A DNA stretch of 64,000 bases from an uncultured virus (IMG/VR IMGVR_UViG_3300009132_000003) (Duplodnaviria > Heunggongvirae > Uroviricota > Caudoviricetes): the IMG/VR virus record IMGVR_UViG_3300009132_000003, one strand, 5' to 3'. The notes beneath the pieces are model-generated. The model was not told the DNA's origin, searched no databases, and worked only from the letters and a program-made list of their open reading frames with translations. A program made the position numbers and the translations under genes. Of this stretch, positions 21,268-41,913 are shown one piece after another; position 1 is the stretch's first letter, and each line of letters begins with the position of its first letter.

Positions 21268-21762
21268 ATGAAAACATACCAAGGAAAATATAAAGTAAAA
21301 CATAGGTCCAAATATCGTGGTGATCCAGACAATATAATATATAGATCAATGTGGGAAAGACACTGTTTTAGATGGTGTGATAATAATCCTTCAATAAAAA
21401 ATTGGGCTTCTGAAGAAGTTGTAGTGCCATACTTCTATGAAGTCGATAAAAAATATCATCGTTACTTTGTTGATCTAAAGATAACATTTAAAGATGGTAA
21501 AACTATTATTGTAGAGATTAAACCGGATAGTCAAACAACACCGCCAAAGTTTCCAGGAAGAAAAACTAAAAGATATATTAATGAGGGTATGACTTATGTT
21601 AAGAATATGAATAAATGGAAAGCTGCTAAAAACTTTGCTGAAGACAGAAACTGGGAGTTTCAGATTTGGACAGAAAAAACTCTGCAAAGTATGGGTATAA
21701 TGCCAAAGCAGTCAAAAATGAAGAGTCTTCCGAGAATGAAAAAAATTAAAAAATCATTATAA
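21268..21762 (+). CDS. gp4: Head completion nuclease gp4
   Basis: KYRGDP.NIIYRSMWE, WASEE..VPY, HRYFVD, VEIKP..QT, N..KW.AA. Confidence 0.93.
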   Translation: MKTYQGKYKVKHRSKYRGDPDNIIYRSMWERHCFRWCDNNPSIKNWASEEVVVPYFYEVDKKYHRYFVDLKITFKDGKTIIVEIKPDSQTTPPKFPGRKTKRYINEGMTYVKNMNKWKAAKNFAEDRNWEFQIWTEKTLQSMGIMPKQSKMKSLPRMKKIKKSL

Positions 21763-32824: not shown

Positions 32825-33092
32825 TTCTAAAGAGATTACCAGGACGATTTTTTCCTCGACTATACTCTTTTTTATAACCCAATTTTACCATTTTTTTACC
32901 AAAAGGTTTTAGTAAATTATTACGATAGATATTTGACACAGCGTGAAATACAAAATCATCAAATTCATTATTATCTGTTTCTAAGCCTAAATCAATAATT
33001 ATACTTCCGCTTGTTCCAATCCAACCCTCTGATGTATTCTTAAGTTTATCAATTACAAGAGTTTCTGTCATTTTTTTGATATCATTTACCAT
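32802..33092 (-). CDS. Hypothetical protein
   Basis: ORF in the operon. Confidence 0.5.
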   Translation of the reverse strand: MVNDIKKMTETLVIDKLKNTSEGWIGTSGSIIIDLGLETDNNEFDDFVFHAVSNIYRNNLLKPFGKKMVKLGYKKEYSRGKNRPGNLFRIESCIDE

Positions 33093-33366
33093 CTATTAAG
33101 GTACTCCACTTTTTAAGTTTTTCTTTTTTAGCAGAGCTTCTAGCATAGATATGTTTCCAATCTAATACATTATGCTCACACATTAAATCAATCATGCAAT
33201 AAACATCGCCAACTTCTTCAAGAAGTTTATTTCTTTGATCATCTTCTATTTCCGAAAACTGTTCATATTTACGGATAATTTTACTACATCTCTGAGTAAG
33301 TTCCCCACATTCTTCTGCAGTAATAACCATTAACTGTTGAAGTTTATTAATTGGATTATTTTTCAT
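33082..33366 (-). CDS. MazG-like nucleotide pyrophosphohydrolase
   Basis: EECGEL...LLEEVGDV: ExxE...ExxD motif of all-alpha NTP pyrophosphatases. Confidence 0.8.
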   Translation of the reverse strand: MKNNPINKLQQLMVITAEECGELTQRCSKIIRKYEQFSEIEDDQRNKLLEEVGDVYCMIDLMCEHNVLDWKHIYARSSAKKEKLKKWSTLIDGK

Positions 33367-33370
33367 AATA

Positions 33371-33529
33371 AAACTCCTTTACTCAACGCCCCTAGTAATT
33401 TTTTATTTCCTAGCATCTCCACGTTTTCACGACACTGATATTTCACAGGCGAATTATTCTCGCGAGATGTTGCTTTCAAGCCCGGTTCTCTCTGCACGGA
33501 CGTTGAGTAAAAGAGTCTAAAGACTCTTA
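33371..33529 (-). ncRNA. Structured cis-regulatory RNA candidate in the 5' leader of the MazG-like gene
   Basis: 21-bp closing stem (33498-33518 with 33371-33391; 3 G-U pairs fix the strand), internal four-way junction, GAAA tetraloop, SD inside the stem. Confidence 0.7.
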
Positions 33530-33641
33530 TTTTGTTAACATTCTCATACATGTGAAAATAGAATTTTCATTTAAACAATCTGTCCATATATGAATAAAAT
33601 ACCAAGCGGCTAAAACTAACACTAAAATTAGTATTAGCACT

Positions 33642-33944
33642 TTAATCCCACTCGTTATCATACCTTGTTGTTTCATACAAAGTTTCTCCATAATAAGTTT
33701 TAGCATACTTAGCTTGATCGGTATATTGATTTATATTTTCACCATCTTTTACGTTTAGTGCTGCAAGAGGATCTTTACGTTTCTTGCGTGCTTGTAACAT
33801 TGCAGACCGAGCTTTTTTGGCTTTCTCTTTAATTTCATACATTTTAATCTGACGAGCACGTTCAGCTTTCTTTTCTGCTTTACGACGCTCTGCGATTTCT
33901 TTGATAAGAGCAAGACGGTCATTCTGTGTTTTAGCAATAGTCAT
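33642..33944 (-). CDS. Basic early hypothetical protein
   Basis: Directly downstream of promoter/RBS repeat copy 1. Confidence 0.65.
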   Translation of the reverse strand: MTIAKTQNDRLALIKEIAERRKAEKKAERARQIKMYEIKEKAKKARSAMLQARKKRKDPLAALNVKDGENINQYTDQAKYAKTYYGETLYETTRYDNEWD

Positions 33945-41062: not shown

Positions 41063-41498
41063 CCACCTGTTGTTGTGTTACAACACCTTCGCTAATTAAT
41101 TTTGCTCTATTATTCATATGTTGTGCTTGGACCTCTTCCTTTGATCCACCGAAATATGGAACACAATGTCCCTCACTAATCATTACTTCAGTAGCCATTC
41201 TTCCATCTTCTGTTACAAAGTCTCCAAGAACCCTACCAAACTTGCCTTTCATATCTTCACCATTTTTATTAATTTGTGTTTTTAGTATAGCAACCTTGCC
41301 CAGTAATGATTCAAGTCTATGCTTACTTGCTTTACCGAAAAGCTTTTCTACTTTATCTCTAGTGCGTGATTCTGGAGTGTCAATACCCATGATACGAACT
41401 CTTTCATCTGATAGTACTATTCCAAAACCTAAATCAATATCAACATCTACAGTATCTCCATCAACCACTCTTAGTACCTTGCATTTATATTCATACAT
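41025..41498 (-). CDS. Staphylococcal-nuclease-like (thermonuclease) protein
   Basis: RVVDGDT, VRIMGIDTPE, GKFGRVLG. Confidence 0.88.
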   Translation of the reverse strand: MYEYKCKVLRVVDGDTVDVDIDLGFGIVLSDERVRIMGIDTPESRTRDKVEKLFGKASKHRLESLLGKVAILKTQINKNGEDMKGKFGRVLGDFVTEDGRMATEVMISEGHCVPYFGGSKEEVQAQHMNNRAKLISEGVVTQQQVDEAEMENKKKAR

Positions 41499-41913
41499 TT
41501 GCTATTCCTTTAACGTGTTTAGAATGAATTTTTCCTCCTATAAACTCATTATAATATTCGTCACTAAATAGCACTTCACGATCAATCTGCTCTTTCATTT
41601 CAAAGTAAGACATTTCGCCTTTACTTCTGCAGAGTCGGAGTATTTCTCTTTTAAATCTTTCCGATCCATGATTTTCAACAAGAAGTTTTACCTCTTCATT
41701 GGATCCATGGTAATCTCGCCAGTCGGATTCTTTCTTAACAATTCTATTTCTAGTTTTGCCTTTTAGAGGTTTTAGTTTTCTTCTTGACCAAAACCCTTTT
41801 TTACCTATATATTTTTTATTGTTACTTAAATCTGTTATACAATAAACAAACCCAACTAAGTTATCAAAATCAAACTCAGCTGGGTTAAATTCGTTACCAT
41901 TAAAAATCCACAT
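41491..41913 (-). CDS. Stand-alone GIY-YIG nuclease domain protein
   Basis: GFVYCIT...KKYIGKK, Y.GS, F.REIL, YYN. Confidence 0.8.
   Translation of the reverse strand: MWIFNGNEFNPAEFDFDNLVGFVYCITDLSNNKKYIGKKGFWSRRKLKPLKGKTRNRIVKKESDWRDYHGSNEEVKLLVENHGSERFKREILRLCRSKGEMSYFEMKEQIDREVLFSDEYYNEFIGGKIHSKHVKGIANV

Follow-up and report, generated by a model that had tools for sequence, protein, structure and literature searches.

The 64,000-nucleotide stretch of DNA analysed here, called the window below, belongs to an uncultured virus of the Caudoviricetes (IMG/VR record IMGVR_UViG_3300009132_000003). Between positions 33371 and 33529 its minus strand carries a structured element in front of an open reading frame (ORF) for a MazG-like nucleotide pyrophosphohydrolase, and a first-pass annotation had described this element as a translational switch dedicated to a nucleotide-pool enzyme. 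The analysis led to a different view. The element is likely to be one copy of a modular small phage RNA that probably dimerises with itself and whose closing stem, in the window copy, doubles as a lock on the Shine-Dalgarno (SD) sequence of the next gene. The fold is conserved, modular and encoded on the minus strand; it is independent of any single neighbour gene and is present once per near-complete genome.

Fold of the window copy

All features described in this section lie on the minus strand. The closing stem, P1, is formed by pairing of a 21-nt 5' arm (33498-33518) with a 3' arm at 33371-33391 and contains three G-U pairs, exactly as annotated in the first pass. Folding and ensemble computation also agreed with that annotation in placing the SD sequence AAGGAG (33374-33379) of the MazG-like ORF (ATG at 33366) inside the 3' arm, and in the partition function of the window ensemble each SD base had a probability of less than 1 % of being unpaired. 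Helix P2 (33470-33497) consists of the outer helix GUGC/GCA, a conserved internal loop (GAG / UGAAA side), an inner helix, which is GAG/CUU in the window, and the loop AACCGGG with the palindrome CCGG at 33482-33485. The same nucleotides had been read as a GCU-UGAA-AGC hairpin and a separate unpaired purine-rich strand, but the relatives described below disagree with this reading and the two parts together make P2.

The P3 module (33414-33469), which is optional in the family, is closed by the helix CAUCUC/GAGAUG and holds three hairpins, GCGAG/UUCGC, CUG/CAG and CGU/ACG. It is followed by P4 (33392-33413), reduced in the window to a CUAG/CUAG stub with an A-rich loop of 14 nt. Both the closing helix over three hairpins and the CUAG/CUAG helix had been correctly recognised. 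The CGU-GAAA-ACG hairpin does appear in the computed fold, but it showed no covariation and was broken in 6 of the 24 sequences that have it.

The minimum free energy (MFE) of the 181-nt minus-strand stretch was -50.1 kcal/mol (z = -3.8). The plus strand of the same stretch folded nearly as well (z = -3.87), so the strand was not settled by energy; it was settled by the conserved G-U pairs. The minus strand originally proposed from the G-U pairs was therefore the right one, on the strength of the G-U pairs of the relatives. The element was also confirmed to be richer in G+C than its surroundings, with a content of 0.40-0.45 in comparison to 0.28-0.33 (about 0.30) in the flanks.

Conserved architecture and covariation of the RNA family

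Relatives of the element were gathered by two pattern scans of viral contigs, which gave 39 and 96 stretches. De-duplication left 69 distinct members of 80-220 nt, which were combined in alignment A2 (60 pairs, 3,656 cells), and a covariance model, R1, was built with 12 nt trimmed at each end. Two further loci, L120 and L121 (loci are numbered with the prefix L throughout), turned out to be non-members and were left out of the P2-segment comparison.

Standard pairs filled 96.6 % of the 3,656 cells of A2, in comparison to 40-47 % for slid partners. Both-sided compensatory changes were found in 27 of the 60 pairs, and none of 500 shuffles attained the observed value on any of three measures. In P1 compensatory changes were found in 12 of 22 pairs, and 97.8 % of cells were paired. 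Within P3 the closing helix demonstrated compensatory change in four of its six pairs and the CUG/CAG helix a U-A to C-G switch in 10 of 28 sequences. G-U pairs were invariant at columns 22/227 and 32/45 (69 of 69 sequences each) and frequent at columns 153/197 (54 sequences), which fixes the transcribed strand. The covariation check proposed in the first pass for homologous phage leaders thus came out in favour of the fold, conserved and covarying in 69 relatives from viral contigs. Stop codons were present in all three frames in 62 of the 69 members, hence the RNA is non-coding; for the same reason the reading of an open 62-codon frame across the window copy as a gene was rejected.

The constant parts of the family are P1 of about 22 bp, the junction CGUCYGUGYRGAG, P2 with its conserved internal loop and a closing GGGCG. 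P1 was contiguous over 20-26 bp in 41 of 66 members, and the others had one mismatch. The remaining parts vary. The three-hairpin P3 module was present in 28 of the 69 members, the window copy included, and elsewhere its place was taken by a plain hairpin (AUCUC-GAAA-GAGAU type, in many members) or by nothing. Most members have as P4 a domain of about 75 nt that includes an inner hairpin, the helix equivalent to the window stub bearing some 55 nt more. P4 is reduced or lacking in several members, and in the 4-bp stub of the window R1 aligned 14 nt against 56 in the consensus. As judged from the alignment, P3 and P4 are interchangeable or dispensable modules, and the window copy is a short variant that lacks most of P4.

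Several structures akin to the family or to its parts were noticed along the way. Tandem family members, a long form and then a short or divergent one, occur in L086/L130 and in L138, and the L086 pair lies directly 5' of a tRNA-Pro gene. The three-hairpin module of P3, as a 45-nt unit (three GUGAAA-type repeats, CUGG/CCAG closing), recurs nearly unchanged in other, larger GC-rich structured RNAs at L082, L090, L092, L094/L106, L097/L109, L112 and L117, near position 600 of each. These host loci are phage arrays of tRNA and alpha/permuted transfer-messenger RNA (tmRNA) genes, where Rfam found only tRNAs and tmRNAs.

A second subfamily, which differs in junction and core but shares the kind of stalk and has a P2-like hairpin with CCGG in its loop, was seen in L308, L312, L313 and L295, upstream of a gene for a 68-aa protein, and at L138:300-405 on the minus strand; none of these five was detected with R1. 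A third, unrelated core in a stalk of about 17 bp occupies the same genomic hot spot in L299, L300 and L306, about 150 nt before the 68-aa gene and at times followed by tRNA-Trp. In L119, L153 and L308-L313 a conserved GC-rich hairpin (GGGGAGRGG ... CUGCAG ... CCYCUCCC), with ACGA after it, stands 20-30 nt before P1; it could terminate the unit upstream or protect the 5' end.

The palindromic loop of P2

Columns 38-41 of A2, at the centre of the P2 loop, were self-complementary in 138 of 138 cells, that is in all 69 sequences. Pair 39/40 was GC in 34 sequences, AU in 22, CG in 11 and UA in 2, and pair 38/41 was GC in 57, CG in 11 and GU in 1. Watson-Crick palindromes (GGCC, GAUC, CCGG or GUAC) filled these columns in 68 of the 69 sequences. 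No other of the 132 four-column windows contained four distinct palindromes; the runner-up had three types, found in 19 % of sequences. The symmetry was kept in the longer loop forms CCGGCCGG, CCGUACGG, UGAUCA and AGGCCU.

Since adjacent bases are unable to pair with each other in one chain, and since the loop switches from one palindrome to another, a symmetric kissing-loop homodimer is the inferred arrangement. In the study of Kretsch et al. (PMC12286853), switching from GGCC to GAUC or AGCU was taken as support for the intermolecular bridges of OLE and GOLLD, and the P2 loop displays the palindrome-to-palindrome covariation by which symmetric kissing loops are recognised there.

Sequestration of the SD sequence

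In 33 of 72 distinct copies the outer part of the P1 3' arm holds an AGGAG-type SD, and a start codon follows at 5-10 nt. The other 39 had no SD in P1 and carried arms of the AAUAG or AGUAG type with compensating changes in the 5' arm. The window copy, which is of the SD type, has in addition a hairpin 'a-b' at 33511-33528 on the minus strand, referred to as the SD-mimic hairpin, in which AAGAGUC (33528-33522) pairs across the loop UUUA with GACUCUU (33517-33511). All seven pairs are standard, the hairpin alone is worth -7.5 kcal/mol, and the 3' arm of the hairpin coincides with the anti-SD portion of the 5' arm of P1. This competitor had been seen in the first pass, which located it at 33529-33512 instead of 33528-33511.

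In all copies the SD-mimic hairpin was scored as present when the anti-SD strand could form 5 bp or more with the upstream 24 nt. It was present in 29 of the 33 SD-type copies, in comparison to 5.7 expected from shuffled flanks, and in 7 of the 39 non-SD copies, in comparison to 8.2 expected. Its versions track the P1 arm (GAGUC/GACUC, GAGUU/AACUC, GAGAGUUA/UAACUCUU). The three-strand arrangement of SD, anti-SD and SD mimic, first suggested from the window alone, is therefore real and, to judge by this enrichment, selected. In the window the alternative fold, comprising the mimic hairpin and a P1 of 13 bp, was computed at -48.2 kcal/mol and lies 3.4 kcal/mol above the MFE of -51.6. When the upstream 24 nt were allowed to pair, the computed cost of freeing the SD fell from a median of 12.1 to 7.25 kcal/mol in 32 SD-type copies and from 11.7 to 5.9 kcal/mol for the window type.

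In L297 and L298 an SD-mimic hairpin and a 12-bp anti-SD/SD hairpin stand alone, without an RNA core, about 40 nt before the start of the 68-aa gene. In L261 and L185 the RNA core occupies precisely the position of this joint, so the core-less form is either the product of a precise loss or the ancestral state.

These results bear most directly on the explanation that the element acts purely in cis, as an SD lock and/or a stalk for RNase III-type processing or mRNA stabilisation. It would then be a two-state gate, perhaps run by the upstream ribosome, with no RNA acting in trans. Such a role is rather unlikely to be the whole explanation, although much of the evidence suits it: the buried SD at the proper distance from a start codon in 33 of 72 copies, enrichment of the mimic in SD-type copies only (29 of 33, in comparison to 7 of 39), the near iso-energetic folds of the window, the survival of the a/b/c hairpins in L297 and L298 without a core, a P1 that measures about 22 bp almost throughout the family and, where an ORF precedes the RNA, an upstream stop codon that mostly lies 0-16 nt from P1. 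However, 39 of the 72 copies have no SD, and those near tRNA genes (nine) or before terminator-like hairpins (three) have nothing to gate. The most conserved parts of the RNA, namely the junction, the P2 internal loop and the palindromic loop, are irrelevant to SD masking. The geometry of the upstream stop is also unfavourable: a ribosome stopped there would, given the general ribosome footprint, cover the SD-mimic arm and not the anti-SD strand, and would therefore close the SD rather than open it.

A separate observation concerns the 5' side of P1. In many non-SD copies (L125, L100, L169, L196, L142, L197, L086) AAGGAG or AGGAG occurs directly 5' of P1, often right behind the upstream stop codon, so that SD-like sequences are met on both sides of the RNA in the family. 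The 5' one could be a remnant of insertion beside an SD or a processing site.

Genomic contexts and copy number

Relatives of the MazG-like gene were collected from IMG/VR contigs (376 in total) and 80 loci were kept. R1 matched at 11 of them, and 69 had no such RNA within 1.5 kb; at most of the loci the gene abuts another ORF and has no leader. Among the 11 positive loci the RNA lay directly upstream of the MazG-like gene in seven, and in the other four it lay about 400 nt upstream, with the SD in its stem serving a gene for a small membrane protein. A tRNA-like sequence was discerned by eye in L077 and L078, about 60-130 nt upstream of the MazG-like gene.

The unrelated 68-aa gene was accompanied by an R1 match at 29 of 75 loci. 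In the 75 distinct copies with flanks the genes after the RNA had at least seven unrelated N-termini. A tRNA gene was present within 150 nt downstream in nine of these copies, starting 2-8 nt after P1 in eight of them; the ninth is the first element of the L086 tandem, with the tRNA 121 nt away. GC-rich terminator-like hairpins with U runs follow the RNA in L101, L168 and L182. Sigma-70-like promoters, or a separate SD at a greater distance, come after several copies. On the other side, most copies that follow an ORF have its stop codon 0-16 nt before P1.

A switch dedicated to the MazG-like enzyme, as proposed in the first pass, does not fit this distribution: the RNA accompanies a small minority of MazG-like genes and elsewhere adjoins unrelated genes and tRNAs. 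The corresponding explanation, a riboswitch controlling translation of the MazG-like gene by binding a nucleoside triphosphate (NTP), a deoxynucleoside triphosphate (dNTP), ppGpp or a cyclic nucleotide, is very improbable. The sequestered SD with its alternative hairpin, the multi-branched junction with conserved unpaired purines and the nucleotide-pool enzyme downstream had made it attractive. Against it stand the 69 of 80 MazG-like loci without the RNA, the downstream partners from at least seven unrelated families or tRNAs, the lack of the putative aptamer P3 in 41 of 69 members and of all or most of P4 in the window, and the absence of any Rfam riboswitch match even at E up to 10. The MazG-like gene is a downstream neighbour of the RNA and no constant partner, and in annotation the intergenic fold should not be called a MazG riboswitch.

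The RNA was found once in the window and once in each of two contigs, of 177 kb and 275 kb, and on this ground the element was rejected as a miniature inverted-repeat transposable element (MITE). In 596 Gb of prokaryote genomes 35 pattern matches were obtained, none of them credible with R1; the only cellular match to score, L243 (23.5 bits), reads like coding sequence and was discarded. R1 also had no match in the cultured relatives C48C1, Melnitz-3 and S-M1 (Kyanoviridae). The varied contexts together with the low copy number indicate a phage-borne, single-copy, optional RNA gene, and the RNA is neither the leader of one gene nor a proliferating repeat.

That the element is instead MITE-like mobile DNA, with the P1 arms as terminal inverted repeats, or a protein-coding sequence or its remnant, is very improbable and the least probable explanation of all: presence or absence among related phages in several contexts, the tandem pairs L086/L130 and L138, SD-like direct repeats beside some copies and the open 62-codon frame of the window are set against a single copy per near-complete genome, arms that covary and whose G-U pairs would be A-C mismatches on the other strand, covarying internal helices, stops in all frames of 62 of 69 members and no convincing copy in the cellular genomes.

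Proposed mode of action

The reading preferred here, that of a modular and probably self-dimerising small RNA, would work as follows. The family comprises small structured non-coding RNAs (about 80-220 nt) of uncultured marine T4-like myoviruses, built on a constant chassis of P1, which joins the 5' and 3' ends, the conserved junction and P2 with its palindromic loop. Excision from polycistronic or tRNA-operon transcripts would release the RNA, P1 serving as a stalk for processing or for protection of the ends, and two molecules would form a homodimer through the symmetric P2 kissing loop. About half of the copies, the window copy among them, have an outer third of P1 that doubles as the SD of the next gene. 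There the SD-mimic hairpin would compete for the anti-SD, keeping the downstream gene translated at a low, tunable level. Cleavage in P1 could free the SD, the mimic hairpin then capping the upstream mRNA. Masking of the SD would thus be a secondary, local effect of where the RNA is placed and not its purpose.

As to what the dimer does, our best guess by analogy is that it may be a small analogue of GOLLD and ROOL, acting as a scaffold or decoy. A more specific version can be offered only as a tentative idea, more doubtful than probable. In it P1, the junction and the P2 loop would form a minimal dimerising scaffold into which phages plug interchangeable modules, such as the 45-nt unit. The homodimer would then display two copies of the cargo to a host or phage factor, for which it might be a decoy or scaffold, while also serving as stalk and translational gate.

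Several points weigh against the preferred reading. That two molecules join through the P2 palindrome is inferred from aligned sequences. R1 has an effective sequence number of 1.6 with many close kin, so the cell counts overstate the number of independent events, and behind the four palindrome types there may be no more than a few switches. L310, a divergent member that scored 21.6 bits, lacks the palindrome and has an AUA triloop. The 33 SD-type copies among 72, the selected mimic and the core-less L297 and L298 show that the SD lock can stand alone, and this cis-acting lock may be more than a side effect.

Before the structures of GOLLD, ROOL and OLE, natural homo-oligomers of RNA were regarded as rare. 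If the tentative idea of a scaffold with plug-in modules is true, the present RNA would be the smallest in the emerging group of phage RNAs that assemble by themselves and the first in which modules are evidently swapped. At 80-220 nt, a family with a palindrome-switching signature would be much easier to handle than GOLLD, ROOL or OLE. Its covariation is clean, each genome has a single copy, and natural variants exist that have or lack each module, which makes it suited to the study of self-pairing phage RNAs. The family also provides a case of a structured RNA that shares nucleotides with the ribosome-binding site of its neighbour, with a compensating SD-mimic hairpin.

Comparison with known RNAs

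In its manner of working the RNA would most resemble the phage tRNA-island RNAs GOLLD and ROOL, a likeness and not a membership. Like them it is phage-encoded; a tRNA gene lies within 150 nt downstream in 9 of 75 distinct copies, and the window has none. PMC12286853 describes symmetric kissing loops with a covarying internal palindrome in GOLLD and ROOL, and the P2 loop bears the same signature. However, GOLLD and ROOL measure about 500-800 nt or more and have Rfam models of their own, whereas the present RNA, at 80-220 nt, is 3-10 times smaller and modular. They form RNA-only cages of 8 to 14 subunits, whereas with the single palindromic loop found here at most a dimer is to be expected. Unlike GOLLD and ROOL, the present RNA is part of an mRNA in about half of its copies, which have an SD within the closing stem.

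The kissing loops of OLE (L9.3) and of the HIV-1 dimerisation initiation site (DIS) have the same layout, a central self-complementary tract with unpaired flanks and palindromes that differ by lineage. They belong to molecules of different biology. T4 rnaC (species 1) and rnaD (species 2) are likewise small RNAs of a T4-type phage that adjoin tRNA genes and are made with them; rnaC, however, folds with a tRNA-like T-arm end, whereas the marks of this family are a closing stem of 22 bp and a palindromic loop.

The 33 SD-type copies resemble SD-sequestering riboswitches and RNA thermometers in that the SD is paired to an upstream anti-SD for which a third strand can compete. Unlike those regulators, the family has no conserved aptamer and no constant regulated gene, and many of its copies have no SD. 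In length and continuity P1 resembles the RNase III stalks of rRNA operons and of the intercistronic sites of phage T7: it is a long helix of about 22 bp between the two flanks of an RNA inside a longer transcript, and its 22 pairs (97.8 % of cells paired) make up about two helical turns with few or no interruptions; the interior here, however, is a conserved structured RNA and not a mature rRNA or a simple bubble. Finally, manA and wcaG are, as here, orphan structured RNAs of marine T4-like phages, but their architecture differs.

Searches for known relatives

No match was obtained when the 64-kb window was scanned with cmscan against Rfam 15 at the gathering thresholds, the models of manA, wcaG, GOLLD, ROOL, pRNA, Y RNA, 6S RNA and the ribozymes included, and at E up to 10 the region 33200-33750 gave only noise (E = 2.4-8.5). 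Over the loci of 14 relatives Rfam reported tRNA and tmRNA only. The suggestion that the element might represent a new phage RNA class was therefore upheld, as it is conserved with covariation in marine phage contigs and has no Rfam 15 match, whereas the suggested kinship to manA or wcaG was not, since cmscan found neither. With filters off R1 scored T4 rnaC at 8.7 bits (E = 0.23) and found nothing in rnaD. Blastn of the element in the window and of a long-form member against GenBank phage records (INPHARED), a set that may lack records close to the window genome, gave no match. No description of the family was found in the literature searches, and six contig identifiers of the family were absent from supplementary files 3-6 of a catalogue that listed 8,495 candidate RNAs of viruses in 2023 (PMC10690425).

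The window genome and neighbouring genes

The window carries T4-like myovirus markers (gp5, gp6, gp8, gp25, gp32, RNase H, PhoH, RNR and SegE), and by gp32 its closest cultured relatives are Kyanoviridae, with 53-58 % identity. No tRNA genes were found in its 64 kb. The gene downstream of the RNA (33082-33366, minus strand, ATG at 33366) encodes a 94-aa MazG-like NTP pyrophosphohydrolase, assigned through PHROG 4856 (E = 1e-18); Pfam MazG gave only E = 0.007, under the Pfam cut-off.

Upstream of the RNA, on the same strand, lies a frame for a small hydrophobic protein (33527-33706), with homologues in L014 and L073. It had been taken for a possible 37-codon hydrophobic upstream ORF starting at GTG 33640. 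The hydrophobic frame is there, but it is in fact the end of a conserved small membrane-protein gene, whose start, judged by homology, is likely to be ATG 33661, giving a product of 44 aa. Its TAA (33527-33529) overlaps the 5' arm of the SD-mimic hairpin.

Further upstream (33642-33944, minus strand) is a gene for a 100-aa basic protein with the C-terminal end RYDNEWD, which often precedes the RNA in relatives. An obligatory link between the two was considered and rejected, as R1 had no match within 900 nt at nine loci of distant homologues (42-49 % identity); in L341, L343, L346, L348 and L349 the DNA downstream of the homologue was read and runs on without the RNA element. The small membrane-protein gene (ATG 33661) begins within the last codons of the 100-aa gene (stop at 33642-33644), in another frame. 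Elsewhere in the T4-like backbone of the window there are genes for a SegE-type GIY-YIG homing endonuclease (41491-41913, minus strand) and for a protein with a TnsA-like endonuclease N-terminal domain (21268-21762, plus strand).

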